From: a virus
Direction: 5' to 3' (one strand)
IMG/VR virus record: IMGVR_UViG_3300032397_000001
DNA: 64,000 nucleotides
The notes beneath the pieces were generated by a model. It saw only the letters and a list, made by a program, of their open reading frames with translations, had not been told where the DNA came from and did not search any database. Below are positions 20,522 through 60,611 of the stretch, piece by piece (the first letter of the stretch is position 1; each line of letters opens with the position of its first letter). The position numbers were made by a program, and so were the translations under genes.

Positions 20522-20673
20522 TTAATGTCAATACGAGATCTAAGCTTTACTGTTTAGGTCTCGTGTTTACTCTTAATCAGTGGTAACCGTTGTCTTTATA
20601 GGAGGGAATAGTTATGAAAGAATATTACTGGTCAGCAGATACTTGATCTATTTCAGTAAGGGAGGGTATAATC

Positions 20674-21054: not shown

Positions 21055-21368
21055 AAGGAGGTTATTATAAAATGTCAGAAGAAGCATTGAAAGAGTTTGA
21101 GAGAGTACGACAAGAAATGCGCAATCCAGAACAACAGTCGATTGAACTTGACTGTGCTCCTGGGTATCCTCGCCCAGGAGATCTCATCGATGGAGTAATT
21201 GAAGGGTTAGGTCTCGAAAAGAAGGAGACATGCTCTAAAGTATTTGGTAATTGGAAATGGGTTTATCCAGAGGTTCCTGCAGAGAAGTGGAAAGAGATTC
21301 GAGAAGTACTCAAGGAAAGAATTTCAAAGCTCTATAATAGTGGGGTAATTCGCTATGGTAGTTGGTAG
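21051..21368 (+). CDS. Hypothetical protein
   Basis: ORF track; likely start 21072 after aaggagg. Confidence 0.6.
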   Translation: MKGGYYKMSEEALKEFERVRQEMRNPEQQSIELDCAPGYPRPGDLIDGVIEGLGLEKKETCSKVFGNWKWVYPEVPAEKWKEIREVLKERISKLYNSGVIRYGSW

Positions 21369-21389
21369 TAACGATTCATCCAGAGAAGA

Positions 21390-21623
21390 ATGGAGGTGAT
21401 TAAGATGCTATTTGGTCCATGCGTTGGTGGTAAGTGTCCATATTACAGTAGAGCATTGAAGAAATGTAAACTCGGAAAGGCTAACCCTACAACAGAAAAG
21501 AGAACTCTCGAAGTTGTTGAGTTAATGGGCTGGTCTTACATCTGTATGCGGAACCCTTGGAAGAAAGAGGCCTTGTTTCAAATCTCACAGAAGAAAGGAG
21601 AGAGTGAGGTTGCAAGTTCTTGA
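21390..21623 (+). CDS. Small Cys-containing hypothetical protein
   Basis: ORF track; RBS ggaggtg. Confidence 0.55.
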   Translation: MEVIKMLFGPCVGGKCPYYSRALKKCKLGKANPTTEKRTLEVVELMGWSYICMRNPWKKEALFQISQKKGESEVASS

Positions 21624-21834
21624 TAATGAGTTATTTCCCGGAAGGAGAAAGCCAAGATGAAAAAAGATTGTTGGCATCCAGAAGACGTTCCTCTGTGGAG
21701 AAAGGTATGGTTGTTAATCCGTTACGCAATCAAGAATCGTTGTAGAAAGGAGGTATGACAGAAGAGGAAGCAATGAGGCATATTAGCGTTGTTGTGACTA
21801 AGCAATTGACAACATTCAATGGAGGTGATTAAAA

Positions 21835-21996
21835 ATGGCAATCAAAGATGAGCTTCTCGAAATCAATGAGATTCTGCAGCAGTGGTTAGAAGGAGGCATG
21901 ACAGAAGAGGAAGCAATGAGGCATATTATCGTTGTTGTGGCTAAGCAATTGACTTCAATGTTGGTGGTGATTAAAAATGGCAATCAAAATCAATGA
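21835..21996 (+). CDS. Copy of the 20336 gene with a different C-terminus
   Basis: First 42 codons identical to 20336. Confidence 0.6.
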   Translation: MAIKDELLEINEILQQWLEGGMTEEEAMRHIIVVVAKQLTSMLVVIKNGNQNQ

Positions 21997-22114
21997 GAAT
22001 CTGCAGCAGTGGTTAGAAGGAGGTGAAATGAGAATCGTTGTAGTTGTCTTCGGTTCATTAGTGTCTATGGCTATCTTTGCGTTAATGGTTTACATCGCTC
22101 ATCAGATTCATTAG
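21977..22114 (+). CDS. Chimeric small membrane protein (deleted MAIK...QQWLEGG head plus TM helix)
   Basis: MAIKINENLQQWLEGGEMRIVVVVFGSLVSMAIFALMVYIAHQIH; alternative start 22028. Confidence 0.45.
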   Translation: MAIKINENLQQWLEGGEMRIVVVVFGSLVSMAIFALMVYIAHQIH

Positions 22115-22125
22115 GAGGATTCACA

Positions 22126-22326
22126 ATGGAGATTAACAGAGAACTCGACAACTTCAAACAGCTGCTTGAGACTCGTAATCAGATCCTTCAAGACAAAATT
22201 CATCTTCTTGAGAAGGAGAGACTCTTCCTTCAAGCTGCGAAGGAGTCGGTCTTGAATTTCGGTCTTGTGGATCTCCTCGATATCAACTGGTCTAAAATGA
22301 GATATTTCGTTCGACGTGGTGGCTAG
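22126..22326 (+). CDS. Small coiled-coil protein
   Basis: RBS aggagga; heptad Leu pattern. Confidence 0.6.
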   Translation: MEINRELDNFKQLLETRNQILQDKIHLLEKERLFLQAAKESVLNFGLVDLLDINWSKMRYFVRRGG

Positions 22327-22343
22327 AACACCTAGGACCAGTC

Positions 22344-22388
22344 GAGTCACCTCTGATCCTTGAGTCACCTCTGATCCTTGAGTCACCT
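22344..22388. repeat. 18-bp tandem repeat x2.5
   Basis: gagtcacctctgatcctt x2 plus gagtcacct. Confidence 0.9.
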
Positions 22389-22544
22389 TACATCTAATAC
22401 TAAAGTTAGTAGTTTATGCTTTGTGTGATTCTTGTGAAAGGAGGTGATATGGTTATCTATATTATACTCATACTCTTTGTGTGGGTATACTGGGGCAGGT
22501 GGTGAGGGGGCTTAACGCCACTATAGAGAGGAGGTGAAAACAGA

Positions 22545-22889
22545 ATGGCAGAAGACCTCAACGCAATGTTCGCAGCTGCCGAGAAGGCGGTGGCCAACGG
22601 CCTTGACAAGTACGCAGGTACAGGTCAGGGTTTGAGAGGCATCATCTTCACGGCGATGGATGAGTTCAGGAAAGCGAACAAGAGCAAGACGTACAGACGC
22701 GCTGCTCTTGTACGATACCTCCTGACTCTGAAACCTGTTCAGGCCGGGCTGATTGCGACTGCAGAGCGTGTCATTGGCTTCGGTAAGCAAGACGCGATGC
22801 AGAGACTAAATAACCATCTCGGCCAGTGGTCCAAAAAGCGAGGCTGCAAGGAAGGCGGCGCTCGCGGAACGACCACAGTAACCCTGTAA
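22545..22889 (+). CDS. Basic, putative DNA-binding protein; member of a 3-paralog family
   Basis: RBS gaggaggtg, own terminator; similar to 38878 and to the C-terminus of 34530. Confidence 0.65.
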   Translation: MAEDLNAMFAAAEKAVANGLDKYAGTGQGLRGIIFTAMDEFRKANKSKTYRRAALVRYLLTLKPVQAGLIATAERVIGFGKQDAMQRLNNHLGQWSKKRGCKEGGARGTTTVTL

Positions 22890-22894
22890 CAGCT

Positions 22895-22930
22895 AGAGGA
22901 GGTAGGGCTTGTCCTTGCCTCCTCTTTTTC
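22895..22930 (+). terminator. Rho-independent terminator
   Basis: agaggaggtaggg/ccttgcctcctct stem followed by a T-run. Confidence 0.85.
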
Positions 22931-23345
22931 TGCTTAACCAAAACATTTTTTTGTTTACCTCAAACCTATACACACACAGCTTACATGTCTCCTCGGTCCA
23001 CTCCGCTCGGCGTCGTTACCTTTCCTGTTTGACTCAGCCTACGCGCCCCGCGGAACTTACTGGGGATTGTACGTTAAAAAGTTTAGTCATTGTATTTCCC
23101 ATATTGTGAGATTAGTTTTCAGGTAGGGGCCGGCCCTAAAAACTTAGCTAACTATTTGATTTTATTATGTTTTTTGAAGAATGTGACTTGAGCAACTAAT
23201 AGGGAATAATTGTTCTAAAATAATCGTTAAGCACTATAAAAGTAGACAAGTTATATTCATGTCATTCCTAATGCTGTTCGCTAATTCATGTCATAGGCCA
23301 ATAAAGATTTTCTTTGAGCCCGTGACTATTATATTATGAACAAAT

Positions 23346-23395
23346 ACAAACTGATACAAAACTCTAAAACAAACTGATACAAAACTCTAAAACAA
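23346..23395. repeat. 23-bp tandem duplication
   Basis: acaaactgatacaaaactctaaa x2. Confidence 0.9.
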
Positions 23396-23548
23396 GCTAA
23401 TACGTTCAATGTGTTATAATGAGATAAAGTAAGCCCAAAGTTATTCTGTAACAAGTTTAGTCTTAATTCGTTTTAGTGATAAGTTTATTTGTTCCTTGAT
23501 CCAAAGTTATTCTGATGCGCTAAGTGCTACCAGATATATAGTATGCTG

Positions 23549-23786
23549 AGTGTCAATCGTTAGCTGAGAGTCAATCGTAAGTGTCAATCGTTAGCTGAGT
23601 GTCAATCGTAAGTGTCAATCGTTAGCTGAGAGTCAATCGTAAGTGTCAATCGTAAGTGTCAATCGTAAGTGTCAATCGTAAGTGTCAATCGTAAGTGTCA
23701 ATCGTAAGTGTCAATCGTTAGCTGAGTGTCAATCGTAAGTGCCAATCGTTAGCTGAGTGTCAATCGTAAGTGTCAATCGTTAGCTG
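23549..23786. repeat. Repeat array B: 16 copies of AGTGTCAATCGT followed by A (13-mer) or TAGCTG (18-mer)
   Basis: 10 x 13 bp + 6 x 18 bp = 238 bp; three copies carry single substitutions. Confidence 0.97.
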
Positions 23787-23894
23787 GGGGCCCCCCCGGG
23801 AAGAGATAATGAACGCGTAGCCGGGCTGGACCGGGCCGGGTAGGGTGCATTGAAATTAACTATTTCCAAAAGTAACTATTTCCGGAAATCGTGA

Positions 23895-24460
23895 TAGGGA
23901 TAGGGCTAATAGTTATAGTTATAGTTATAGTTTAAAGCTAAGGATAGGGCTAATAGTTATAGTTATAGTTATAGTTTAAAGCTAAGGCTAGGGCTAATAG
24001 TTATAGTTATAGTTATAGTTATAGTTTAAAGCTAAGGCTAGGGCTAATAGTTATAGTTATAGTTTAAAGCTAAGGCTAGGGCTAATAGTTATAGTTATAG
24101 TTATAGTTTAAAGCTAAGGCTAGGGCTAATAGTTATAGTTATAGTTTAAAGCTAAGGCTAGGGCTAATAGTTATAGTTATAGTTATAGTTTAAGGCTAAG
24201 GCTAGGGCTAATAGTTATAGTTATAGTTTAAAGCTAAGGCTAGGGCTAATAGTTATAGTTATAGTTATAGTTTAAGGCTAAGGCTAGGGCTAAGTTAAGC
24301 TAAAGCTAAGGCTAGGGCTAATAGTTATAGTTATAGTTTAAAGCTAAGGCTAGGGCTAATAGTTATAGTTAAGTTAAGTTAAGCTAAGCTAAGTTAAGTT
24401 AAGTTAAAGCTAATTTAGGCTAAGTTAAGTTAGGCTAAGTTAAGCTAATTTAGGCTAAAG
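23895..24460. repeat. Repeat array C: 12 units beginning TAGGGCTAA with a variable number of TAGTTA hexamers, then degenerate TAAGT/TAAGC pentamers
   Basis: Unit starts 23901, 23945, 23989, 24039, 24077, 24121, 24159, 24203, 24241, 24285, 24313, 24351 (mostly 38/44/50 bp). Confidence 0.97.
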
Positions 24461-48334: not shown

Positions 48335-48674
48335 AGGAATAAGGTAATGAGTGCAATGAGTTTAGCTCGTGATGTCTGTAGTCTTACTGCTACAGTAACA
48401 ATTGCTTGGATTATAGTGTTAGTTTGGAAGTTCGTTTTATATATTGTTACCTATCAGGAGGATGATTGATGAGTTTACCTGGAGATGTTATTTATCTAGA
48501 AGCTGTTATGCCGGGTGGAAAAGTGATAATAGGGTCATGGGTGCTTCCAGACAGAAGCCTAACAAATTTTGACGCACAAGCAGATATTGGGTGGCATATC
48601 ATGCTGTGCATGTTAGATGGAGCTACTGAGGTCAAAGTTAGAGTGGATAAACCAAAGGAGAAGGAGGAGAAGAC

Positions 48675-49013
48675 ATGAGGGATATGGTGAGGGATTGGAT
48701 TAAGGACCAAGAGAATGAGTGCTGCGAATATTTTGAGAAGAGTAAAAATGAAGCCCTCTCAGCCCTCGATGCAGAGCGTGCCGAGCACGCCCAAGTAAAG
48801 AAACAACTCCTTGACCTCAACAGTAGAATTCAAGATGAACTCAATGCTGCCAAATTTTCCCTAAATGATGTTCAGAGTCTAGTCGGGATACAGCAGGAGG
48901 AAGTCGCCAACCTCAAACAGCGCATCGCCGAGCTTGAGGCGCACCCATATCGAGAATATCAACTGCAGCTTGCGAGACTTTTGCATACAGAGGAGAAGGA
49001 GGAGAAGCCATGA
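48675..49013 (+). CDS. ALDAER-family coiled-coil protein 1
   Basis: ALDAERAEHAQ..QRIAELEA. Confidence 0.7.
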   Translation: MRDMVRDWIKDQENECCEYFEKSKNEALSALDAERAEHAQVKKQLLDLNSRIQDELNAAKFSLNDVQSLVGIQQEEVANLKQRIAELEAHPYREYQLQLARLLHTEEKEEKP

Positions 49014-49312
49014 GCGACGTTGTGCGTGACTTCCTCTGGAGCCAGAAGGTGCATGGCTGCTATGGGGCCGTGGATGCCCTTGTCGCCCTCGACGCAGAGC
49101 GTGTCGAGCACGCCAGGCAGGTTGAGGATATCAAGTTCCGCTGCACTTGGCTCCATAGCGATCTTGAGCAGCAGGTTGCCGACCTCAAGAGAGAACTGCG
49201 AGATACGAACCACACGAACAATATGTGCATCGTCGACCTCCGGCAGCGCATCTCCGAGCTGGAGGCACAAAAATGTGGGTGTGGGTTGCTGGATGAGGAG
49301 GAGCAGCCATGA
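49010..49312 (+). CDS. ALDAER-family protein 2
   Basis: MSDVVRD..ALDAERVEHARQ..QRISELEAQ. Confidence 0.7.
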   Translation: MSDVVRDFLWSQKVHGCYGAVDALVALDAERVEHARQVEDIKFRCTWLHSDLEQQVADLKRELRDTNHTNNMCIVDLRQRISELEAQKCGCGLLDEEEQP

Positions 49313-49491
49313 TCGGGAGTATGGTGAAGCATGTCCTGCACAATTATGTCCCATGGCGCAGTCAAAACTCTCTATGGTATGAAGCCCTAGCCGACCTTGA
49401 AGCGTTGCAGGCGAGGGTGAAAGATCAAGAGCAGCGCATCGCCGACCTTGAGGCACAGCTTCAGGACGAGAAGGAGGAGGAGACCCCATGA
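49309..49491 (+). CDS. Small protein with MIG..YVP head and QRIADLEAQ tail
   Basis: Junction motif; paralog at 59128. Confidence 0.6.
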   Translation: MIGSMVKHVLHNYVPWRSQNSLWYEALADLEALQARVKDQEQRIADLEAQLQDEKEEETP

Positions 49492-49588
49492 CTTTTCCCG
49501 ACTCATTTATTATTGGCTGGCTACTGGGTGCAATCACCGGGTTGCTTGGAGCCCTACTGTATCTGAGTCTGTAAGGAGGGGAGAAGCC

Positions 49589-50077
49589 ATGAGCGACGTG
49601 ACGCCTATGTGTAAAGGGTGTGAAAAGTTATTTGCTCTGCTGACGGCAGAACGTGCCGAGCACGCAGGGCATATTGTCGATCTGGAACAACATATTAAAG
49701 CCCTCGACATTCGGTGGGACAAAAGAGAGTATGCCAAGGAGGTTGCCGACCTCAAAAAGGAACTTACCAGAGTGAGTTGTATGCATTCGGATGCACATGC
49801 GAAGGTGATCAATTTGGAGAAGCAGGTTGATGACCTTCAGAGGACAATTGACTTTCTGAGGCAGCGCATCCACGAGCTGGATGCCGAACATGCCGAGCAA
49901 ATTTCCGACCTTGCGGAAGGTAACTTGCGTGTACAGCATGTTGCTGCTGTTGAAAATAGTAGGCTGAGACAGGAAGTTGCCTCTCTTCAAGAGCAAAACA
50001 ACTTCCTTGTGTTAGAACTTGAGATTATATCTGAGTTAAAACAACAAATTGAAGTAAAAGTAAAACAACTTCCTTAA
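49589..50077 (+). CDS. ALDAER-family protein 3
   Basis: MSDV..LTAERAEHA..EVADL..QRIHELDAEHAEQ. Confidence 0.7.
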   Translation: MSDVTPMCKGCEKLFALLTAERAEHAGHIVDLEQHIKALDIRWDKREYAKEVADLKKELTRVSCMHSDAHAKVINLEKQVDDLQRTIDFLRQRIHELDAEHAEQISDLAEGNLRVQHVAAVENSRLRQEVASLQEQNNFLVLELEIISELKQQIEVKVKQLP

Positions 50078-50148
50078 TGAGTTAGATGAAAAGGGAATCT
50101 TCTGGAGATATGGAAACTTAGGCTAATAAGGAATAAGGAATAAATAAA

Positions 50149-50394
50149 ATGAGATTGGATATTGTTATAGTTGCTAAAACAAAAGAAGAGTTTGTTGGCG
50201 CATTACAGTCTATGATAGAACAAGTTCAATTATCTAATACTCCATCTAATTCGTCTATGATTACTGAAGATGGAATAGATGTGGATTTTTCATTTACTGA
50301 TTGTGATGATATATATGCTGATATATCTAATTGTAAAGTAATTTTCCCCTCAGATTATTATGAAAGGGTAGCAAAAAATGAACAAGGAGATTAG
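50149..50394 (+). CDS. AT-rich acidic hypothetical protein
   Basis: ORF track; AT-rich insert within the array. Confidence 0.5.
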   Translation: MRLDIVIVAKTKEEFVGALQSMIEQVQLSNTPSNSSMITEDGIDVDFSFTDCDDIYADISNCKVIFPSDYYERVAKNEQGD

Positions 50395-50566
50395 TTTGAA
50401 GAAAGTTGCAAACTTAGGCTATGGACTTACTATCAAAAAGGATGATCTAGGATATTATTTAATTTTAAATAATGATAATAAAAATGTAATTGTATTGAAT
50501 GGTCCTTGGTTAGATTGGGCGAAGAATGAAGAACGGTGGGAAGAACCGGGAACATGGTGACAGGAT

Positions 50567-50605
50567 AGGTGAATCAGGACAGGTGAATCAGGACAGGTGA
50601 ATCAG
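50567..50605. repeat. 14-bp tandem repeat x~3
   Basis: aggtgaatcaggac repeats. Confidence 0.9.
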
Positions 50606-50643
50606 ATTGCGAGACTTTTGCATACAGAGAAGGAGGAGAAGCC

Positions 50644-51192
50644 ATGAAAGACGGCAAGCGCGAGGCAATCTCAAAGGTGTTGGACGTAGCCCGGGAACTC
50701 ATCGAGCAGCACCTCGACGAGCACCACGGGCCGCATGTTCATCATGTTGCGCTTGGGATAGGGGTTATGTCAGGGCTTCCGATTGAATATGTTCCCGAGG
50801 AATCCGTGAATTATCCTACTGATCCTGACTACCCTCCCACCAGGCTGAGCGGGACGATGGAGCCTGAGTGGTGTAAACATCTTGTTACGCATACAGAGAA
50901 TGACAAGCTTGTGTGCAGTGGGTGTGGTGCAATTGGAAATGACCTGAGCAAGAGCTGTGGTATCGAATGGCCCAAGGTCAAGAATCCGGGGAACAAGATC
51001 AAGGTGGGGTGCGAGTATTGCGCCTATTCCACCGCGTCAGGGTGGCCGACTCGTTGTCTCTGCCGTCGGTATCCTCCTCCGGATCCGAGGGAACCTGGGC
51101 CGGATGCAAAGCTCTCCCGTTGGCCGATAGTGCATATCCAGTCGTGGTGTGGTGAGTTTGATCCTGGAGAAGGTTTCCCGTTCCGCTGGTAA
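50644..51192 (+). CDS. Modular protein: QHL.EHHGPH + PTRLSGTMEPE + Cys-rich domains
   Basis: Modules shared with 51204 and 56573; CRRYPP..WCGEF C-terminal domain. Confidence 0.65.
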   Translation: MKDGKREAISKVLDVARELIEQHLDEHHGPHVHHVALGIGVMSGLPIEYVPEESVNYPTDPDYPPTRLSGTMEPEWCKHLVTHTENDKLVCSGCGAIGNDLSKSCGIEWPKVKNPGNKIKVGCEYCAYSTASGWPTRCLCRRYPPPDPREPGPDAKLSRWPIVHIQSWCGEFDPGEGFPFRW

Positions 51193-51203
51193 GGAGGAGT
51201 GAC

Positions 51204-51680
51204 ATGAGTTTCGCCCAAGCCTATGTATGCAATCAATGCGGCCTGGCTCAAAGGAAGTACGTTCCTCCTCTCTGGACCACCCCGATAGCTTTTCACCAAT
51301 GCTGCCCACAATGCGGGGCAGGAATAGAGGATATTCGTCTGGCAATAGGAGAATGGAAACAACAAAGAATAGTGCGCGGATTGTGGCCGTTCAGATTTGT
51401 TGAATATGTGGATAGCGTATTTGAAGAAAAACCAGAATGCCGCAGAACCAGCGCCACAGATGTGGACATTACCAGGCATTGCCCCGTCTGCGTAGTTGAC
51501 GACGATTCACCGACGAGGCTAGGCGGGACGATGGAGCCGGAGCATCAGTTTGTCACCAGGGATGATTTCGATCAATTCCGCTCTTGGCTGAGCCAGCAGA
51601 GAACCGCAGAGTGGACTCGGTTGATGGAGCACTCACACGGGGTAAACGGGGAAGTAATCTTCCCGGACATGGAGGAGTGA
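51204..51680 (+). CDS. Modular protein: Zn-ribbon + PTRLGGTMEPE + WL.QQ..HSH module
   Basis: Modules shared with 50644, 56573 and 55237. Confidence 0.65.
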   Translation: MSFAQAYVCNQCGLAQRKYVPPLWTTPIAFHQCCPQCGAGIEDIRLAIGEWKQQRIVRGLWPFRFVEYVDSVFEEKPECRRTSATDVDITRHCPVCVVDDDSPTRLGGTMEPEHQFVTRDDFDQFRSWLSQQRTAEWTRLMEHSHGVNGEVIFPDMEE

Positions 51681-51813
51681 AACGAAATGAAAACCATGCT
51701 AGGTGCGTGCTTCGGATTCGTTTTCGGTTACCTAATTATCTGTCTCATCTTCAATAAGCTGAGAAGGAAGTCGCCAACCTCAAACAGCGCATCGCCGAGC
51801 TGGAGGAAGGACG

Positions 51814-52008
51814 ATGACTGAAAAAAGGAAATTGTGCCCATTGTTAATGATGGGATGGATGGCATGTCCAAAGGATTTCGGCAAAGACGCAGGAGGTATC
51901 TGTTGTTGTAAAAAGGAAAAATGTGCTTGGTGGTATGAGAATTATGCAGGATGCAGTGTTTGGGTAATGGCTAGAGAACTGGATGGGATAGAAGAAAAAA
52001 CCACATAA
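51814..52008 (+). CDS. Small Cys-rich protein
   Basis: CPLL..CKKEKCAWW..C. Confidence 0.6.
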   Translation: MTEKRKLCPLLMMGWMACPKDFGKDAGGICCCKKEKCAWWYENYAGCSVWVMARELDGIEEKTT

Positions 52009-52021
52009 AAGGAGGAGTGAC

Positions 52022-52219
52022 ATGGAAGCACTGCTACATTCTGTGGAAAAGACGATGGAGAACTTCACACTGTTCATGAATACCACTGTGACTGGGTTTG
52101 AACTCATGGGGAAAGTCTTTGAAAAGCTACAGAACGAAATCTACATACTGGGATTCTGGTGTCTTGGTATCACGGTTTGGCTGGCTGCACTTTCGTGGCG
52201 CTCAAGAAAGAAGGAGTAG
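52022..52219 (+). CDS. Small membrane-anchored protein
   Basis: C-terminal TM segment plus basic tail. Confidence 0.55.
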   Translation: MEALLHSVEKTMENFTLFMNTTVTGFELMGKVFEKLQNEIYILGFWCLGITVWLAALSWRSRKKE

Positions 52220-52286
52220 TAGTACGGATAGAAGAACCCGAGTGGCTTATGGTCTGGCACGACCGTTTGGTAGGAAGGGGACTAAC

Positions 52287-52835
52287 ATGAGGGAAAGGAA
52301 GGGCCGGGTAATAAGAGTGATGGTTTGTTCTATGGTTGCGGTGATCTTTTCGCTGGTCAGTCTGGCTATCATTCTTTTCACTTTAGGCGACTGCACCGAT
52401 TCCTCGACCGAGGCCTGGCCAGCGGATTTCTGGGTTTCCGGGATCCTCGTCTTCGGTGACGTTCTCCCTGACGAGCAGGATGCCATCACCCGGCTCTCTA
52501 CTGCCATTCAGGCTCTTAGCTATTCCATCGACGGCCTCCCCACCGTGATCTTCATTCGCTCACCTGATCAGCATATCCCCAAGATCTGCAAGTGCAGTCA
52601 CTGCACTGACGTATGGTCCGAAGTGCCCGGCGTGATCGGAGTCAAGGAGCGAGTAGCCGGCGAGGGACTGAGCGGCCTTCGGCGCGGAGGGATGATCTTC
52701 GTGAGCCGGATCGGAGACCGGAAGGGAATGCTGGACGAACTCCTGGCGCATGAATTCGCACATTGGCTTTGCGACTGCGGGGATGGAGTGAGGGTTGGTG
52801 TGTTGGAAGGAGAGTTGATTAAGAGGATGTTGTAA
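52287..52835 (+). CDS. Membrane-anchored HExxH (zincin-like) protein
   Basis: N-terminal TM; LLAHEFAHW. Confidence 0.6.
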   Translation: MRERKGRVIRVMVCSMVAVIFSLVSLAIILFTLGDCTDSSTEAWPADFWVSGILVFGDVLPDEQDAITRLSTAIQALSYSIDGLPTVIFIRSPDQHIPKICKCSHCTDVWSEVPGVIGVKERVAGEGLSGLRRGGMIFVSRIGDRKGMLDELLAHEFAHWLCDCGDGVRVGVLEGELIKRML

Positions 52836-52991
52836 CTGAAAGGAGTAGTGATATGTTTTTCATCGGAACCGTTCGTCGATTTCTATTTATCGTCGGTAGT
52901 CATCGTTGGAACGCATGGGTGCGAGACTTTACTGCCAGACTTGAAGGATCATGGTTGATAAGAAGTCGGCCACAAAAGAAGGAGTAACATT

Positions 52992-53465
52992 ATGGACTTT
53001 GAAAAGGTAAGCCCCCACGGCTTTATGATCAAGACCTTTGAGAGATATGACCAGCAGCTACGTATTGAATTGGATAGAGATTATTTGCGACGAGACGATA
53101 TTGACCCTCCCGGTGATGACGTGATCCGTGAACACCTTATCGAGCACCACCAGTCGCTAATGAAATGGTATGAGAACCATCTAGAGGGTCATGCAGATGC
53201 AAAACCACCAGACGATCCCTGCCATGGACCGGAGAAGGTGACCTGCTTACACGAAGAGACCTATACCACAAATGACAAACGTGTATGTTTGTTTTGCAGA
53301 AAGACTATGCACGATTCGCCGCAGCGGTGCGAGTGCAACGACTGTAAAAATATCACATGGGGAGTGAAGAGTAATGGGGTAGAACCTATAAGGTTTTGTC
53401 CATTCACTGGCATGCTAGATGGTCGACCAGCAAGCCGTAAGTTACTGAAGGCCGAGAAGGAATAG
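52992..53465 (+). CDS. Modular Cys/His-rich protein
   Basis: EHLIEHH, CEC..RFCP, related to array modules. Confidence 0.55.
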   Translation: MDFEKVSPHGFMIKTFERYDQQLRIELDRDYLRRDDIDPPGDDVIREHLIEHHQSLMKWYENHLEGHADAKPPDDPCHGPEKVTCLHEETYTTNDKRVCLFCRKTMHDSPQRCECNDCKNITWGVKSNGVEPIRFCPFTGMLDGRPASRKLLKAEKE

Positions 53466-54140
53466 TGAGATGATGTATATCTGCAAGCAAGGTCATATTT
53501 TCTCTTCTAAATCCACTGAGCCTATCTGCCCTACATGCGGTCGCCGCTTGGAGCGAGCGATCTGGGATGACTCCCAGAAGAGGTATATCATGATTCGTCC
53601 CTCTAAGAGGAAGGCTAGGAAGAAGGAGGAGTGAGATATGCGTTGCCCTGAATGTATCAAGCTTGGAATGGTATCTAGAGTTTACTCAGATGGGTGCTCA
53701 ATGACCCTCATGGCTATTTTGGAATGGGCACTATTATAACCCGAACAAAACAACTTGCTCCTACCATTGTTCAAATGGCTATGCTTTCTCGGAAGCATCC
53801 GGTGGCAGATCTCCACCGGATGATGAGAGGTGAGACATGCTATACAGCGGACTTCCACCTAATTTGGTGATTACTCTGGGCATTGTAGCCCTCACTGTCT
53901 GTTTTTTCGGAGCAATAAATGGAGCATTTCTGTTGCTAGACGGGCTTGACCTTCTGAAATGAACGGACGAAGGAGGGGGCGAGATGAAGATGAACAGTTG
54001 GCGTTGGTTCGTTTTAGGATATATAGTAGGGGCCATAGCAGCTACTATTTCAGCCCTATATCTCATCTAGGAGTAGGCGTGTTTACCTTACCTATTGGTG
54101 GTTTGCCCGGCCATTGGAGTTTCCGAAAGGACCAAGTTCG

Positions 54141-54455
54141 ATGAGCGACATAGTGATGAACTATATTAAAGCAAGTAATTGGACACCCCACAAAGAAGAT
54201 ATAATTGTTGCCCTTAAGGCCGAGCGTGTTGAGCACGCGAGACAGACTGCCAAGCTTGAGGCTAAAGCTCAAATATCTTTCGACGGAGAAAGTAGGATGC
54301 TTTCGGTTGTTGCCGACCTCACCGAGCAACTGGAGGAAGCTACTGATATCATCAAAAAACTGCTTGGTGTAAATCAAGTGAGTGATGAGGAAATGGTTAA
54401 AGCTATCGAGTGGGCAAAGAAGTCTCCAGCAATGAGAAATTCTGTTGAGAAGTAA
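54141..54455 (+). CDS. ALDAER-family protein 4
   Basis: MSDIV..ALKAERVEHARQ..VADL. Confidence 0.65.
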   Translation: MSDIVMNYIKASNWTPHKEDIIVALKAERVEHARQTAKLEAKAQISFDGESRMLSVVADLTEQLEEATDIIKKLLGVNQVSDEEMVKAIEWAKKSPAMRNSVEK

Positions 54456-54456
54456 T

Positions 54457-54897
54457 ATGGGCGGACCAAAAATAAGCGATGGTTTGAGTCGACAACGACG
54501 TTGGCAATTACGTCGCACTGCAGAAGGATGTTGTCAGACGTGTGGGCTTCCACTAAATAAGCATTCTTATCAATGTGATTCTTGCTCCGAAAAGAGCACG
54601 ATCCGAGAAAAGCGGCGTTATAAACAACGAATATCAAATGGGAAATGCCCCTGCTGTGGTAGAGAGCATTCATCATCAACCGTTGTTTGTCCAGAATGTC
54701 TTGAAGATAAATCTTCAAGAGTAAAGAGACTGAAGTCTGAGGGAAGATGTATCAGATGTGGAGCTATAACAGAAGGTAGATTCAGTTGTAACGCTTGTAT
54801 TGTTATTGGGCGTGAGAGAGCTCGAAAGAGAAGAGGTTGTGTAAGACGTAATATTAATGCTATGTCATATCAAATCAGTAAGGAGGGAGTAAAATGA
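54457..54897 (+). CDS. Basic protein with three GxCxxCG...CxxC zinc-finger repeats
   Basis: GCCQTCG/CDSC, GKCPCCG/CPEC, GRCIRCG/CNAC. Confidence 0.7.
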   Translation: MGGPKISDGLSRQRRWQLRRTAEGCCQTCGLPLNKHSYQCDSCSEKSTIREKRRYKQRISNGKCPCCGREHSSSTVVCPECLEDKSSRVKRLKSEGRCIRCGAITEGRFSCNACIVIGRERARKRRGCVRRNINAMSYQISKEGVK

Positions 54898-55236
54898 AAC
54901 TGTGGGATAGAGTGAGAGGTACAGCTGTCGTAGCAGGAATTCATATTATGAATAAGGTTAGCAAAGAAGTTTATTTCTAAGCCCGCCTGGGGTCAGGTTA
55001 ACCTTGCAACGTTCGGGACGGAGACCTGGCCTATATTCAGCGAACAGGATGAAAAGGGAGAGGATAAAGATGCTACTCTGTGACCACGCTATTGAGTGCG
55101 GCCAGCGATGTAAGCACGCCATTGCTCACGAGTCTTTCGGTCAGCAGTGCGAGGGGGAGTGGAAGTGCGTACATGTTAAGGCCGATGAGCGAACTCTGTG
55201 CAAGCCACTCAAGGAGAAGGAGAAGGAGGAGAAGTG

Positions 55237-55761
55237 ATGCACAAGATTGACTGGGAAGGTCTGAAGCGTCTTCATGGAGATAATTGGACTATCGAACTCG
55301 TCCGGCAACTGGATGAGCGGTTTGCAAAGAGGGAGGAATTTGAGGAACACAGTAAGTGGCTGCTCAGTCAACAAACAGCAGCATGGGATAGGATAATGGA
55401 TCATAGTCACTCGGCGAAAGGAGAACTTGTATTTCCACCGACGGAGCCCATCACGGTTACCCGAAACATGGTGGGGGCCTGCAGTCCCATCGAGGAGGAT
55501 GAGATCCAGCCAAACACGGTCTGTGACAGCGAAGTTGGATGTGTAACTTTCCCAGAGGATTGGGTTGTAGACACCGTGACGGCAACGCAGCGGGGTTGCA
55601 AGTGCCCGTTATGCTATTCGGTGGTCCAGCCGAAGGCGGAGTGTAATCATCCATGCCACGTGATTAACCGTTCTGGACTCCACTATGCGGAGGTCACCGG
55701 GAAGTGGGCATACTGTGCTAGATGTGGCCTCTCGCTGGCCGCGAAGGAGGAGAAGACATGA
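55237..55761 (+). CDS. Modular protein: WL.QQ..HSH module + C-terminal W.YC..CG ribbon
   Basis: Modules shared with 51204 and 55758. Confidence 0.65.
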   Translation: MHKIDWEGLKRLHGDNWTIELVRQLDERFAKREEFEEHSKWLLSQQTAAWDRIMDHSHSAKGELVFPPTEPITVTRNMVGACSPIEEDEIQPNTVCDSEVGCVTFPEDWVVDTVTATQRGCKCPLCYSVVQPKAECNHPCHVINRSGLHYAEVTGKWAYCARCGLSLAAKEEKT

Positions 55762-56045
55762 ACTGGAAAAAAGTAAATGAGTGCTGGAACACTAAGAGTG
55801 ACATCACCTATGCGCTTGAGGAGATGCTACGTCAGCACCTGGAGGAGTGCCACAAAGAGATAGTGCAGTTAAAATGCCCAGGCTGCGAGCAGTGGTTCGC
55901 AAGTGACAGGTGGATGAAAAAGCCAGCCAAGCTGTGTGAGTGTACAAATAGAATCTGCGGTAGATCGCAGATCAACGGAGTCTGGGTTAATTGGGACTAT
56001 TGTCCGAAGTGCGGAAAGCTGCTGGAGAAGGAGGAGAAGCCATGA
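55758..56045 (+). CDS. Modular protein: QHLEECH + WDYCPKCGKLL ribbon
   Basis: Junction motifs at both ends. Confidence 0.65.
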   Translation: MNWKKVNECWNTKSDITYALEEMLRQHLEECHKEIVQLKCPGCEQWFASDRWMKKPAKLCECTNRICGRSQINGVWVNWDYCPKCGKLLEKEEKP

Positions 56046-56180
56046 ACCGTCTAGCAATGATTGATTTTCTAAACACCAGACTTCGATCATTCAAAACCCC
56101 TTGGTATCGATGGGCAATAGATATTACATGGGACAAACTTGAGCGATGGGCAAAAATGCTTGGATGGAAGGAGAAGTGAT

Positions 56181-56573
56181 ATGGACTGGGGCCAGGAGCG
56201 TACCGAGTACGAGAAGGAGATTGATAACCTAAACCAAGATCGGGCTAACGGGTGTGCATGCCTATTTGTGAATTCTGTTTGCATGTCTCAGTGTTCTTAT
56301 CACGCCAAGCAGGTTGTCGACCTACAAGCAAAACTGGAAGCCTGGTATACTTGGTATTCTTTCCCCAAGTGGAGGAGAGACGATAGTCACGCCACGCAGG
56401 TTAAGGATTTAGAAACACAGATAATCGACTTACGGCGGCAGATACACAAAATAAAAAAAATGTATTCTGCTTTGTCTGGCCCTCGCGCTCATGGACTGGG
56501 TTGCGATTGTGGTGAGCAAGTTAAAAGCGGCTATACTTGTAAACAGTTTTCGGACCTCATGAAGGAGGAGTAA
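56181..56573 (+). CDS. Coiled-coil/Cys protein related to the ALDAER family
   Basis: HAKQVVDL and HATQVKDL motifs. Confidence 0.55.
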   Translation: MDWGQERTEYEKEIDNLNQDRANGCACLFVNSVCMSQCSYHAKQVVDLQAKLEAWYTWYSFPKWRRDDSHATQVKDLETQIIDLRRQIHKIKKMYSALSGPRAHGLGCDCGEQVKSGYTCKQFSDLMKEE

Positions 56574-56932
56574 TGGATTGGAAGAAGATATATCTGGAGA
56601 TACAAAGTAGAGGCTGTCATGAAGATTTTCCTCAAGATTTAATTGATGCGTTGCGGGAGTATAACTGTCAGCACCTAGCCAAGCACCACGGGCCACATCG
56701 TCATCGCTTTGGAGATGGGGTGTGGGTAACTGGAAGTGAGTTGCCTATGGATAAACCGGCAGTTGACGACGACCCTCCGACGAGGTTGAGCGGGACGATG
56801 GAGCCGGAGCGGAGCGAGTGCGACGGCTCATGCCATGACCCAGTTAATTACAATTTCTACCACATCGACAGAGGATGGGAGTTCTGCCCTTGGTGTGGCA
56901 AGCCACTCGACAAGAAGGAGGAGAAGCCATGA
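56573..56932 (+). CDS. Modular protein: QHLAKHHGPH + PTRLSGTMEPE + WEFCPWCGK ribbon
   Basis: Three modules each shared with other array genes. Confidence 0.65.
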   Translation: MDWKKIYLEIQSRGCHEDFPQDLIDALREYNCQHLAKHHGPHRHRFGDGVWVTGSELPMDKPAVDDDPPTRLSGTMEPERSECDGSCHDPVNYNFYHIDRGWEFCPWCGKPLDKKEEKP

Positions 56933-57258
56933 GCGACGTGGTGGGGGAGTTCATCAACAGTGAGGATTGCGAACATCCCTCTGCTTGCTTTACCGAAACT
57001 CACATCTGCACAAAATGCCGAATCATTGCACGACAAGCCCTCGACGCAGAGCGTGTCGAGCACCAGCAATCCTTGGAACTCCTAGATGCAGAATTAAAAA
57101 GACAGTCAGAGGCACTGCATTTCGGAACGTCCCAATTTGTACTCAACAAAAGAGCCGATGAACTCGTAAGGCAGGTAGCCGACCTCCAGCAACGCATCTC
57201 CGATCTTAAGGCGAAGTCATGCCCATACCATGCTCCATGCGAGGAGAGGGATGAATAG
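56929..57258 (+). CDS. ALDAER-family protein 5 with Cys-rich head
   Basis: FINSEDCEHPSACFTE..C..C; ALDAERVEH; QRISDL. Confidence 0.7.
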   Translation: MSDVVGEFINSEDCEHPSACFTETHICTKCRIIARQALDAERVEHQQSLELLDAELKRQSEALHFGTSQFVLNKRADELVRQVADLQQRISDLKAKSCPYHAPCEERDE

Positions 57259-57300
57259 TGCTCGATTCCGAGAAAATCTATACAAGCAACTGATTACTAC

Positions 57301-57329
57301 TTGACAATCTATTAGAAATTCGCTATACT
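57301..57329 (+). promoter_or_regulatory. Strong sigma70 promoter
   Basis: TTGACA-17-TATACT. Confidence 0.85.
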
Positions 57330-57351
57330 TTACTCAGGGAGAAAATACAAA

Positions 57352-57666
57352 ATGAGAATCTTTGATGTTGTGAATAAAAATAATTGTGGGTTCTTCTGTA
57401 TGGCTAAAGATGAACAAGATGCACTTGCCCTTGCTAAAGAAGTTAAACATCTCAGGACTTCTCCCAAGCGTATAATTGACATAACTGAGAATCTAAAAAA
57501 CGAGAATGGAATCTCTGAATTGATGATTGAACAGTATCGTGGAAGGTTATCCAAACAGATAACAGCAATTTCTTTTGATCAACTTTTGGTGTTTCCAGGT
57601 ATGCACTCTCCGAGTTGTTGGATGAAATGGGGACAAAGTATTATGGTTGGTGATGGAATCTATTAA
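57352..57666 (+). CDS. Moron-like hypothetical protein with own promoter
   Basis: AT-rich; directly downstream of the 57301 promoter. Confidence 0.6.
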   Translation: MRIFDVVNKNNCGFFCMAKDEQDALALAKEVKHLRTSPKRIIDITENLKNENGISELMIEQYRGRLSKQITAISFDQLLVFPGMHSPSCWMKWGQSIMVGDGIY

Positions 57667-57682
57667 AAGAGGAGGAGAAGCC

Positions 57683-57883
57683 ATGAATAGAAATACCGAG
57701 TGGTTAATGGGCTGGCATGATCGAATGTTTGAAAAGTACGGACACCCAAAGGGCGGGATCGACTGGTGCAGAAAGTTGGCTAATTTTATGGACGAGCTTG
57801 GCAATGATGATCCATCAGATGCGGCGATTAAGGAGGCCATGAAGTGGGAAGCTGAAAACCCAGAGAAGGAGGAGAAGACATGA
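57683..57883 (+). CDS. Small hypothetical protein
   Basis: Junction motifs at both ends. Confidence 0.6.
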   Translation: MNRNTEWLMGWHDRMFEKYGHPKGGIDWCRKLANFMDELGNDDPSDAAIKEAMKWEAENPEKEEKT

Positions 57884-58143
57884 AGTATCGCAAGAAACCC
57901 ATAGTGATTGAGGCAATACGATACAATGGAGACAACTTTAATTGCATTCGCCTATTCGTTGGCAATACACCATTACATCGGGTGGGTGATGATAAACTTG
58001 GCATCCAAACCCTTGAGGGTATAATGATAGCCAACCCAGGCGACTGGATAATCAAGGGGATAAAAGGCGAGTTTTATCCTTGCAAAAATGACATATTTGA
58101 GGCTACCTATGATCTGTTGGTCGAGAAGGAGGAGGAGCCATGA
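57880..58143 (+). CDS. Conserved phage protein (PGDYG-like)
   Basis: YRKKPIVIEAI..QTLEG..ANPGDWIIKGIKGEFYPCK.DIF..TY. Confidence 0.8.
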   Translation: MKYRKKPIVIEAIRYNGDNFNCIRLFVGNTPLHRVGDDKLGIQTLEGIMIANPGDWIIKGIKGEFYPCKNDIFEATYDLLVEKEEEP

Positions 58144-58412
58144 GCGACGTGGTGCGTGATGAGTTACAGATAGCGATTGGGCTGGCAACTGGTATCAACA
58201 AGCAGCGATGGATAAATGTCCTTGCTGCCCTCGACGCAGAGCGGGAGGAGCACGCCCAAGCAGCCGAGTTGCTGAACGCTGAAGTTAAGCGGAAAGCACC
58301 AGTTGTAGAAATGTGCGACTACCGTTGCAAAGTGGACACAGATTACGAGAACTGGATGTATTGCCCAACGTGCGGTAAGTTGCTGCGATATTGGAAAGAA
58401 ACTACCAGGTAA
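58140..58412 (+). CDS. ALDAER-family protein 6 fused to a WMYCPTCGKLL ribbon
   Basis: Chimera of two array modules. Confidence 0.7.
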   Translation: MSDVVRDELQIAIGLATGINKQRWINVLAALDAEREEHAQAAELLNAEVKRKAPVVEMCDYRCKVDTDYENWMYCPTCGKLLRYWKETTR

Positions 58413-58450
58413 AGAGTGGTAGAGAAACTTTCAATGAAAACCCTATTGAC

Positions 58451-58478
58451 AAACATCTGGTGGATGTTTTTTTTTTTT
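58451..58478 (+). terminator. Rho-independent terminator
   Basis: aaacatc-tggtg-gatgttt plus long T-run. Confidence 0.65.
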
Positions 58479-58488
58479 CTGAAAGTAC

Positions 58489-58517
58489 TTGACATCTGTT
58501 TGTAAGTATGCTATACT
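58489..58517 (+). promoter_or_regulatory. Strong sigma70 promoter with extended -10
   Basis: TTGACA-17-TATACT with TGn. Confidence 0.85.
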
Positions 58518-58551
58518 TAGATCATACAACAAACATGAAAGGGGAATTGAA

Positions 58552-58848
58552 ATGAGTACAATTCGTTTTGACTCACCTTTAGTGGAAGGATTGAGAAGAG
58601 GGATAGTAGCAGAGTTAAATTCTCAAGTTCAAAGTGACGATCCTGTAACTGAACGTCAACGTCTTGAAAAGGTTGAGGGTCAAGTATGGGATACTCAAGA
58701 ACTGTCAAGAGATTTTGAAGTGTTGAGTTTTCTTGCTCCGTTTGTTGTTGTAATAAGGAAGGTTGATAATGTCAAAGGTACTTTGACCTTTCAACATCGT
58801 CCGAGATTTTATTTTGATTTTGTTGAAGATACATGGAAACCCTCATGA
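58552..58848 (+). CDS. Moron-like hypothetical protein
   Basis: VWDTQELSRDFEV..FLAPFVVV..GTL.FQH.PRFYF. Confidence 0.65.
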   Translation: MSTIRFDSPLVEGLRRGIVAELNSQVQSDDPVTERQRLEKVEGQVWDTQELSRDFEVLSFLAPFVVVIRKVDNVKGTLTFQHRPRFYFDFVEDTWKPS

Positions 58849-58861
58849 AAGGAGGGGTGAG

Positions 58862-59131
58862 ATGAGCGATTTACCAAGAGCCTTTATCAACATGGAAAAC
58901 TGTGATCATCCCGCGGCTTGTTTTACGGAAATACGCATCTGTTGCCATTGTCAGATTGCAGCCCTTGCCGCCCTCGACGCAGAGCGTGAGGGGCGCGCCA
59001 AGCAGATAAGTTTATCCGAGGTCAAGATTTCTAACCTACGTTCCGAGTACGTCGGGGAGATTACTTTTCTCAACCTATGTATATTGGGGCTTGAGAAGCG
59101 GTTGCGAAACGAGAAGGAGGAAGGACGGTGA
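58862..59131 (+). CDS. ALDAER-family protein 7 with Cys-rich head
   Basis: FINMENCDHPAACFTE..; ALDAERE. Confidence 0.7.
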   Translation: MSDLPRAFINMENCDHPAACFTEIRICCHCQIAALAALDAEREGRAKQISLSEVKISNLRSEYVGEITFLNLCILGLEKRLRNEKEEGR

Positions 59132-59345
59132 TCGGGGATAAGGCGAAACTGGTACTTACGGTCTATGTCCCGTACTTTAGTCAAACTGGGGCGTGGCAGA
59201 AGGGGATTAGAGAACTAGAGTCATGCAAGGAAAGCTGGTAGAGATCAGGCGCCGTGCTGAATCATGTCTGCGCTTTCGTTCCAGGGATGACTCACAGAAG
59301 ACATTGTATGACATCATTGACCTGATCGACAGCTTGGAGGAGTGA
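59128..59345 (+). pseudogene. Frameshifted paralog of 49309
   Basis: MIG..K.VL..YVP..SQ..W head stops at 59241; plausible continuation MQGKLVEIRRR.. in another frame from 59223. Confidence 0.5.
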
Positions 59346-59346
59346 G

Positions 59347-59496
59347 CTAAGCGACGTCATTCGTGATGTAATTAAGGCTTGGTCTCCTGAGATAGTTGCC
59401 CTCCTCGACGTTGAACGTGCCGAGACCGCCAAGGAGGTTGCCGACCTCGAACTGAAGGTACAAAAGAATTACTACTATAGAAAAATTATCTCCCCC
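59347..59496 (+). pseudogene. Start-less ALDAER-family remnant in frame with the next ORF
   Basis: cta-agc-gac-gtc replaces atg-agc-gac-gt; LLDVERAETAKEVADL. Confidence 0.55.
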
Positions 59497-59523
59497 GTGA
59501 ATCTTTTTCTTGGAGATGTTAAA

Positions 59524-60021
59524 ATGGAAAATGAGGAGGGAACTTTTCAGTTAGATTGGGATACAATTACGAGTCCTTTGTCAGATGATTTCAGACCATT
59601 ATTAGAGTTCCTTAAAAGATATCATAAGCAACTCTGTTTAAAGTTATTAGCCTCAGCAATAATTATAGATAAGCAAGAAATTCTTATTCAGTTAAGAAAT
59701 TTGAATCAGCAGGTTGACAATCTCGAAGTGAATATTGGTCGTCTTGGGGAGTATATAGATACTATTAGGAATGATTTACTAACTGAGATGAGGAGAGAAT
59801 CATGGCTGAAGAAGAACATTCGAAAGATCAAGAAAGTGTTATACCAAATCTTGCGAACGCCCTTGAGAATCCTGAAGCACCTAAGAAGCGAGAACGATAC
59901 CAATCACAATCAGGATTCATTGCAGTGTCACTCCATAGAGGATATACCGAAATCGGAATCCTGGACTCAAATCTCCAATCAGAAGTCGGAAAGAGCGCCT
60001 TCATCTGTGGAGGATACGTAA
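59524..60021 (+). CDS. Coiled-coil hypothetical protein
   Basis: ORF track; 3' end overlaps next gene by 220 nt. Confidence 0.5.
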   Translation: MENEEGTFQLDWDTITSPLSDDFRPLLEFLKRYHKQLCLKLLASAIIIDKQEILIQLRNLNQQVDNLEVNIGRLGEYIDTIRNDLLTEMRRESWLKKNIRKIKKVLYQILRTPLRILKHLRSENDTNHNQDSLQCHSIEDIPKSESWTQISNQKSERAPSSVEDT

Positions 60022-60611
60022 GATACTGTGCAAGCCCTCGACGTGTACCTGAACCCGCATCAGATGTAGATGTGTACTGTAAGGATGAAGAGACGTTTCT
60101 ACATCTGAAGGAATTCTTCAAGAGAATTGATTTGAGTGTACGTCATGAGAATGACATCTCTCTCACGTATACGTTGCCCAAAGAGAGTACTCATCCATAC
60201 TTCTATGCACCTGCTGTTCAGTTGATTAAACCTATACGTGAAGGACGTGTTGTAGCGAATGGTTCAATGGTAGAGATTCTCGAGAATTTCGATTTCACTG
60301 TCATTCGTTGTGGTTTAATAGATGAGAATACAGCTATGGTTGATGCGGACTTTCTCCATGATGAGGAACATAAAGAATTACGTTTGAAAACTATCCATTG
60401 TCCCATCAGTAGTACACTTCGTTGTATGAAGTACGCAAGGAAGGGATATTGGTTAAGACCGTTTGAATGTTTGAGACTCTTTCTGGATTGGGAATCACGG
60501 TCTGAAGATTATCGTAACAAGTTACGCAACTTTCTTGAGAAGTCGGCAATTAATGGTGAATTCACAAAAGAAGAGGTAAATGAGCTCGAGGCTTTAATGA
60601 GAATAGATTAG
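59802..60611 (+). CDS. Pol-beta superfamily nucleotidyltransferase (CCA/poly(A) polymerase head-like)
   Basis: FICGGYVR...SDVDVY; ILENFDFT; R.MKY..KGY. Confidence 0.75.
   Translation: MAEEEHSKDQESVIPNLANALENPEAPKKRERYQSQSGFIAVSLHRGYTEIGILDSNLQSEVGKSAFICGGYVRYCASPRRVPEPASDVDVYCKDEETFLHLKEFFKRIDLSVRHENDISLTYTLPKESTHPYFYAPAVQLIKPIREGRVVANGSMVEILENFDFTVIRCGLIDENTAMVDADFLHDEEHKELRLKTIHCPISSTLRCMKYARKGYWLRPFECLRLFLDWESRSEDYRNKLRNFLEKSAINGEFTKEEVNELEALMRID

Follow-up and report, generated by a model that had tools for sequence, protein, structure and literature searches.

We analyzed a 64,000-nt stretch of DNA from a virus (IMG/VR record IMGVR_UViG_3300032397_000001), hereafter the window, which carries an array of small genes between positions 48466 and 59241. 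As a whole, the data make it likely that this array is an evolutionary hotspot of short-homology recombination, that is, a hyperplastic region, which operates without dedicated diversification machinery. The window is a strand-uniform stretch of a large uncultured tailed sediment phage. Its 5′ end lies within a very large tape-measure gene (Pfam PhageMin_Tail), tail-type genes run to approximately 19 kb, and the array lies approximately 30 kb downstream of them. The G+C content of the array (0.473) was higher than that of the upstream (0.398) and downstream (0.383) flanks, and neither the junction motif nor the module proteins described below were found elsewhere in the 64-kb window. All of the sequencing runs that held the window stretch were sediment metagenomes. 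The protein encoded by the array gene g56573 was present on 22 contigs, the longest of 169,308 nt, and a comparison with 50,697 deposited phages gave no near DNA match to the window and no tblastn match for g56573. A first-pass annotation, made from the letters alone, had described approximately 15 small genes built from a shared kit of modules; the shared-kit design held, and the gene count was too low, because the array contains approximately 34 genes, approximately 17 of which carry shared modules, with several unrelated passenger genes in between.

All seven motif classes (a–g) listed in that annotation were found in the translations of the genes it had named (Table 1). Local BLASTP comparison among the array proteins showed that the paralogues were similar over local segments, not over their full length. 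Residues 12–75 of g50644 matched residues 23–79 of g56573 (E value, 3.6e-13), after which the C-termini were unrelated. The WLLSQQ module was C-terminal in g51204 (residues 113–157) and N-terminal in g55237 (residues 26–70; E value, 5.7e-13), and a 16-residue block containing PTRLSGTMEPE was 87.5% identical between g51204 (residues 98–113) and g56573 (residues 64–79). The FIN heads of g56929 and g58862 (residues 1–56 in both) matched with an E value of 6e-17 and were followed by different bodies, and g58140 consisted of an ALDAER head joined to the zinc-ribbon tail of g55758.

Short repeats were also present in the DNA. A 25-nt gene junction occurred 12 times in the array, the ALDAER block eight times, the QRIAELEA block six times and the PTRLSGTMEPE block three times; three repeat patterns gave 9, 4 and 6 matches, compared with 0.00 expected for each from 100 shuffles. 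At residues that were identical between copies, the same codon was used in 143 of 200 cases for ALDAER (68.9 expected from array codon usage), in 77 of 113 for VADL-QRIAELEA (35.8 expected) and in 19 of 28 for PTRLSGTMEPE (8.4 expected). The FIN head, analyzed for comparison, showed no such excess (8 of 14; 6.1 expected). Because the synonymous codons of the anchors matched at approximately twice the expectation and the sequence between them was saturated, the anchors are conserved as DNA and not merely as protein. A hairpin considered in the ALDAER DNA block was rejected, since the stem drawn by eye was not kept in the other copies; no formal test was made.

The annotation had further proposed that recombination between such anchors gives rise to new small proteins, and had named alternative module orders in related genomes as a check. 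The relatives supported this proposal: rather than a fixed gene order and module set, they carried the modules in different combinations, and the breakpoints lay in the anchors. Protein searches covered 5.8 and 1.8 billion proteins and returned 6, 8, 7 and 17 matches, and nearly all of the relatives found were mosaics. No relative of g56929 was found in IMG/VR, and a search of genome contigs with g55237 found none either. P0011 combined a g48675 head, a g49010 body and a g56929 tail; P0012 had the make-up of P0011 except for a g49309 tail; P0035 joined a g58140 head to another body and a g48675 tail; and in P0006 a g56573-type head, the WLLSQQ module, a ribbon and an ALDAER protein were fused. 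The WLLSQQ module began anywhere from residue 41 to residue 128, and was N-terminal, central or C-terminal depending on the protein. The head-by-body and body-by-tail tables held every combination required to rule out one common tree. P0002, which stands alone in another phage, was likewise a mosaic, consisting of a g56573 head (90% nucleotide identity), 24 nt identical to part of g55758, and the PTRLSGTME block.

Breakpoints were also located in the DNA. The P0011 gene (contig L027, 2745–3005) was a three-piece mosaic corresponding to window positions 48665–48791 (92%), 49085–49186 (93%) and 57171–57257 (86%), and its successive pieces overlapped exactly in the anchors, by 30 nt at ALDAER and by 16 nt at VADL. 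Contig L032 (5771–6015) matched g56929 at 94% from the ALDAER anchor onward and had an unrelated head. Contig L034 was 100% identical to window positions 48528–48901 and diverged from the VANL/VADL anchor onward, where it continued with a different tail and a gene for an AAA_24 ATPase. In L118, which belongs to a phage with a G+C content of 0.51, positions 55235–55476 of the window (g55237 residues 1–80) recurred with two mismatches in 242 nt (99.2%) between unrelated flanks, and the edge of the shared segment was the gene start codon beside the junction. More generally, the similarity blocks of L026, L031/L032, L118 and L019 began or ended at junctions or start codons. The last two transfers described, those in L034 and L118, are recent events.

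Strain-level variants were found in a sister low-G+C phage, of which contigs L025, L027, L028 and L029 differed between flanks that were 98–99% identical. From L028 to L027, the loss of 483 nt between two 11-nt repeats in the QPKA linker produced a 92-residue chimera; from L028 to L025, a 59-nt deletion spanning a gene junction produced a 190-residue fusion; and L027 and L029 had different tails from the end of the QRIAELEAQ block onward, both of which occur in the window. L032 and L033 were 99.75% identical over 4.4 kb, after which the ribbon was swapped following the QPKA/QPRA block. The claim that the hotspot is active is sustained for the phage community, where variants with 98–100% identical flanks show anchor-bounded deletions, fusions and swaps, but not for the consensus of the phage studied here, which was identical in six assemblies.

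We evaluated the association between breakpoints and anchors blindly, with anchors set from self-comparison of the window only. These anchors made up 4.3% of the array, and positions within 6 nt of them 6.4%. Of 35 distinct similarity ends, 12 fell within 6 nt of an anchor (binomial P ~1e-6), a figure that is conservative but imperfect, since similarity does not stop only at crossovers. The same parts were present in phages of differing composition: array G+C contents of 0.45–0.52 occurred with backbones of 0.33–0.37 (L032), approximately 0.40 (the window) and 0.50–0.60 (L026). In Logan contigs from four runs, module stretches (e.g., 55132–55505) had a several-fold higher summed depth, crudely estimated, than adjacent bins, which fits the presence of other, more abundant phages carrying the same parts in the same samples.

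Several observations weigh against reading the array as a recombination hotspot. No rearrangement was seen within this phage's own consensus: the array was 100% identical in six contigs from six samples, and four more had the same gene table. The lone candidate deletion variant of this phage, P0033, joins position 48897 to 51765 via a 37-nt exact repeat and occurs only in a Logan k=31 contig; because the repeat exceeds k=31, this joint may be a graph artefact. The read data analyzed consisted of such contigs, in which joints at repeats of at least 31 nt are not trustworthy. Two thirds of the similarity ends lay outside the strict anchors, many of them at start codons or weaker motifs, and the L034 junction is known from one JGI (Joint Genome Institute) contig. 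All of the module-bearing contigs found came from one sediment project. An exact scan for the junction gave 120 stretches in metagenome contigs, only nine of which had module proteins, all from that project, and 12 single matches in IMG/VR, all unrelated. In addition, no recombinase was identified in the window.

On this evidence, we propose that whole small genes and gene parts are re-sorted by short-homology recombination. The proteins are chains of small units, namely heads of the helical-hairpin type, coiled-coil bodies, zinc ribbons and short tails. The units are joined via the codon-conserved blocks ALDAER, VADL-QRIAELEA, PTRLSGTMEPE and QPKA, and the genes by a 21–25-nt cassette that combines an acidic tail, a ribosome-binding site, a stop and the next start. 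These blocks are common to the array paralogues and to other phages of the same sediment community. Unequal crossover within a genome would yield deletions, fusions and duplications, and crossover between co-infecting phages would swap heads, bodies, ribbons and tails. Because crossovers would fall in conserved blocks or the junction, reading frames would usually be kept, giving new chimeric small proteins, and failed events would persist as relics. We infer that joining is performed by general or phage-encoded homologous recombination. A bolder reading, in which we place rather little confidence, is that the anchors and the junction were selected as a “universal adaptor” system, by which unrelated community phages (backbone G+C contents of 0.35 to 0.55) maintain one shared stock of protein parts that would fit together in any order with frame and translation intact, yielding fast-evolving small binders, for example against host defences.

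One alternative is a programmed diversification device, such as a site-specific recombinase, a shufflon, an integron-like cassette array or a diversity-generating retroelement, acting at high frequency in each infection cycle. The many short conserved sites at regular positions and the restriction of variation to one locus would suit such a device. However, the repeats were all direct, the sole inverted repeat in 11.2 kb being one 15-nt palindrome, and window open reading frames (ORFs) of at least 120 residues contained no reverse transcriptase, integrase, invertase or other recombinase domain, so that the hallmarks of shufflons, invertible cassettes and integron attC sites were not found in the window. 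Those of diversity-generating retroelements were not found either: in addition to the lack of a reverse transcriptase domain in the window ORFs, the repeat pair that was checked (48895–48939 and 51762–51806) had two mismatches that were not adenine-specific. Considering also the identity of the array in six assemblies, a programmed device is very improbable, and is largely refuted within the window. The least probable explanation is that no shuffling occurs: the array would be an old tandem family that keeps a few functional motifs, and the mosaics in relatives would be metagenome assembly chimeras over repeated motifs. The anchors are indeed also protein motifs, which purifying selection could keep, the relatives lie on short contigs (0.5–6 kb), and P0033 is likely a k=31 artefact. 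Yet the same mosaic proteins were present in independent assemblies from JGI and the European Nucleotide Archive (ENA), with P0011 on four contigs from four samples, and P0006, P0012 and P0013 in both sources. The exact repeats (11–37 nt) are short relative to k=141, the value that ENA contig names carry (k141_...), and the final k-mers of JGI assemblies are likewise long relative to them. The pieces differ from the window copies by 7–14% and are therefore not chimeras of this phage's reads. The conservation of synonymous sites in the anchors between saturated flanks, and head-by-body-by-tail combinations that do not fit one tree, also speak against an unshuffled family.

A further alternative, improbable but less so than those above, is a horizontally acquired island that was re-sorted in the past and now encodes fixed, ordinary structural or regulatory proteins, with the anchors kept for protein function and translational coupling, and recombination being a rare by-product without adaptive meaning. 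The jump in G+C content relative to the backbone, the clonality of the array across samples and the want of any family or function match for the module proteins in Pfam, PHROGs and PADLOC are as expected of such an island, and the junction is wholly explained as a strong ribosome site with an overlapping stop and start. Against it stand the segments at 100% (L034, ending at an anchor) and 99.2% (L118, ending at a start codon beside the junction) in other contexts, the several strain-level variants in sister lineages, and conservation of anchor codons beyond the need of protein function. We accordingly favor the recombination hotspot.

Most of the array proteins are acidic (isoelectric point, 4.1–6.4) and Cys-rich. 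In the AlphaFold model of g55237 (mean predicted local distance difference test score [pLDDT], 69), residues 1–70 formed a confident helical hairpin and a small beta hairpin (pLDDT, 84–94), and the model of g56573 (mean pLDDT, 66) had a helical head and ribbon region at approximately pLDDT 70–83. The PTRLSGTMEPE and QPKA anchors fell in low-confidence linkers between the better-predicted units, a predicted position that would fit crossovers there being structurally tolerated. Foldseek searches of both models against PDB and BFVD gave no match at an E value of 0.001 or below, all scores in the ESM Atlas were below 0.9, and the matches of the module proteins in Pfam, PHROGs and PADLOC were unspecific, being confined to coiled-coil noise and zinc-ribbon matches below threshold. 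The first-pass annotation had put forward host interaction or anti-defence as a plausible role; we tentatively suggest, as one possibility, that these are small binding proteins, made early and by coupled translation, that serve in host takeover or counter-defence. From the chain of overlapping stops and starts, coupled translation in a few operons is to be expected. The numbers of promoter sites (22; shuffle mean, 22.0) and terminators (8; shuffle mean, 10.3) in the array were not in excess. Only two stretches looked like promoters, both of the sigma-70 type, at 57299–57329 (before g57352) and 58486–58517 (before g58549); they preceded the two genes that break the chain.

Table 1. Features of the gene array, in window coordinates
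Feature	Position	Strand	Description
Whole array	48466..59241	+	34 small genes, mostly translationally coupled
Junction cassette, first of 12	48657..48681	+	Acidic EKEEKP-type tail of upstream gene, strong Shine-Dalgarno sequence, overlapping stop/start (ATGA)
Other junction copies (starts)	48992, 49291, 49467, 50626, 55219, 55740, 56024, 56911, 57862, 58122, 59110	+	
Junction near-copy	57666-57686		
g48675	48675..49013	+	MRD head; ALDAER anchor 48762-48791; coiled-coil body; VANL-QRIAELEA anchor 48903-48941; AHPYREYQ tail; junction tail
g49010	49010..49312	+	MSD head; ALDAER anchor 49085-49114; EDIKFRCTW body; QRISELEA anchor 49229-49267
g49309	49309..49491	+	MIG head; QRIADLEA anchor 49417-49455; LQDE tail; paralogue of g59128
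g49589	49589..50077	+	MSD head; degenerate ALDAER anchor 49637-49666; long coiled coil; QRIHELDA copy 49847-49885
Relic	50603..50644	+	Tail remnant of the g48675 type (final 14 codons), behind stop codons, without gene body; now ribosome site and start for g50644
g50644	50644..51192	+	REAISK head; QHL-HHGPH; PTRLSGTMEPE anchor 50836-50868; Cys-rich C-terminus
g51204	51204..51680	+	Zinc ribbons; PTRLGGTMEPE anchor 51510-51542; C-terminal WLSQQ module
Relic	51758..51817	+	Start-less VANL-QRIAELE anchor copy, 96% over 45 nt to 48895-48939, outside any gene in that frame
g52992	52992..53465	+	Weak QHL-type motif; Cys-rich region; distant member of head-plus-ribbon family
g54141	54141..54455	+	MSD head; ALKAER anchor 54210-54239; own body
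g55070	55070..55237	+	Cys/His head; junction tail; in L026, head fused to g55237 ribbon tail
g55237	55237..55761	+	MHKID head; LVRQLDER; WLLSQQ module 55312-55446; TRNMVG; VTATQ-GCKCP; QPKA linker ~55627; zinc ribbon; junction tail
g55758	55758..56045	+	MNWKK head; QHLEECH; zinc ribbon; junction tail
g56181	56181..56573	+	Cys-rich coiled coil; VVDL and DLETQIIDL pieces common to relatives' tails
g56573	56573..56932	+	MDWKK head; QHL-HHGPH; PTRLSGTMEPE anchor 56777-56809; zinc ribbon; junction tail
g56929	56929..57258	+	MSD and FIN head; ALDAER anchor 57037-57066; body; VADL-QRISDL anchor 57175-57213; CPYHAPCE tail
g58140	58140..58412	+	MSD and NKQRWIN head; ALDAER anchor 58227-58256; zinc-ribbon tail
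g58862	58862..59131	+	MSD and FIN head; ALDAER anchor 58970-58999; own body; degenerate junction
g59128 and overlapping ORF	59128..59345	+	g59128: MIG head, 37 residues; ORF 59223-59345, other frame: CLR..LID tail module
Relic	59335..59496	+	Start-less MSD/ALDAER-type N-terminus; anchor 59401-59430; in frame with next gene

In relatives (P0008 and P0009), the CLR..LID tail was fused to ALDAER proteins; g59128 and the ORF at 59223–59345 probably represent a frameshifted, decaying gene. The three relics listed in Table 1 are scars of past events.

A number of further observations concern the array parts and their surroundings. The P0002 gene (L019–L024, e.g., L019:2408–5251) was wedged among genes for a NeuB-type sialic-acid synthase, a short-chain dehydrogenase and a cytidine monophosphate (CMP)-sugar transferase, and these sugar genes sat between terminase and portal, placing a nonulosonic-acid pathway within the head module. 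Contig L035 (Ga0315275_10041927; G+C content, 0.35) carried, at 1251–2808 on the reverse-complement strand, three tandem distant paralogues with the head, QHL-EHH and zinc-ribbon parts and without the EKEEKP junction; the head-plus-ribbon design may predate the junction cassette. The region before g58549 (58451–58554) had a weak hairpin and a 12-T run upstream of a sigma-70-like promoter (TTGACA, 17 nt, TATACT with TG) and a leader. The promoter-leader cassette of approximately 75 nt (window positions 58486–58554) recurred five times in 5.2 kb of L106 (at about 30, 2390, 3112, 3925 and 4316), before different genes, and by analogy can be regarded as a putative mobile promoter cassette of the promoter-early stem-loop (PeSL) kind.

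Among the passenger genes, 52284–52835 encodes 183 residues with an N-terminal hydrophobic segment and an HEFAH sequence (HExxH-type) near the C-terminus; its product had no family match and may be a membrane metalloprotease. Of all array genes, only 57880–58143 (87 residues) matched a family strongly (phrog_419; E value, 1e-34), a PHROG of no assigned function, and it had weaker matches to a PHROG annotated as nucleotide pyrophosphohydrolase. Just 3′ of the array, 59802–60611 encodes 269 residues, for which the contig tables carry a precomputed label, PF26128 (Gad2, anti-Gabija family). Our own Pfam scan and PDB sequence search did not reproduce this label, and the PHROG matches lacked an assigned function. 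A second local excess of strong ribosome sites, without the array junction motif, was observed at window positions 20000–24000 (nine AAGGAGG in 4 kb).

Most phage genes are small and without assigned function, and the origin of new ones is an open question. Here, both the raw material and the joints are visible: anchors with identical codons let parts of 30–250 nt pass from gene to gene and from phage to unrelated phage, and new in-frame proteins arise fast enough to separate near-identical strains. The locus thus offers a defined system of named parts, joints and natural variants for asking whether sub-genic recombination generally gives rise to new phage proteins, and could also serve to ask whether such repertoires act in counter-defence. 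The junction, with its double role as protein tail and ribosome site of the next gene, provides a simple design principle for portable, translationally coupled cassettes.

The array can be compared with several known systems. In the hyperplastic regions of T4-type phages, a short PeSL cassette is repeated between small non-essential genes, and the insertions, deletions and replacements that distinguish close relatives are bounded by the cassette, with variation concentrated in one region (Arbiol et al. 2010, PMC2839356; PMC4122927). The array is similar in that a short cassette lies between small accessory genes, its 12 junctions are confined to 48.66–59.13 kb, and differences between close relatives are bounded by junctions or start codons. 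However, the PeSL consists of a sigma-70 early promoter and a stem-loop terminator, whereas the array junction consists of a protein tail, a ribosome site and an overlapping stop/start; the array lacks stem-loops and any excess of promoter or terminator sites, and exchange also occurs inside its genes at codon-conserved anchors. In the gp38 adhesins of T2/T6-type phages, conserved glycine-rich motifs lie between hypervariable segments, which are described as easily interchanged specificity determinants (Trojet et al. 2011, PMC3157838). The array ORFs likewise alternate short conserved blocks with interchangeable variable segments. They differ from gp38 in having no sequence or family relation to it (no Pfam or PHROG match), in lying outside a tail-fibre locus, and in forming many genes of an early-type region rather than one adhesin, with whole small domains as the units that change in order and number.

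The idea of modular genomes with linker sequences is reportedly due to Susskind and Botstein (in 1978) and to Juhala and colleagues (in 2000). Relaxed homologous recombination and mosaicism have been described in temperate and lambdoid phages (De Paepe et al. 2014, PMC3945230). There, as in the array, exchange between different phages takes place at short imperfect homologies, and boundaries often coincide with gene boundaries. The homologies in the array (11–37 nt) are, however, in many cases intragenic, and the exchanged units (30–250 nt) are far below the usual scale of genes or modules; no Rad52-like recombinase was identified in the window. Tandem gene “accordions”, such as that of poxvirus K3L, arise by unequal crossover, with copies gained and lost between direct repeats. 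The array shares with them same-strand tandem paralogues, deletion between direct repeats (L028 to L027) and relics of decayed copies, but it reassorts unlike parts, also between viruses, rather than amplifying copies of one gene under selection. The array works like the PeSL and gp38 designs combined but is a member of neither.

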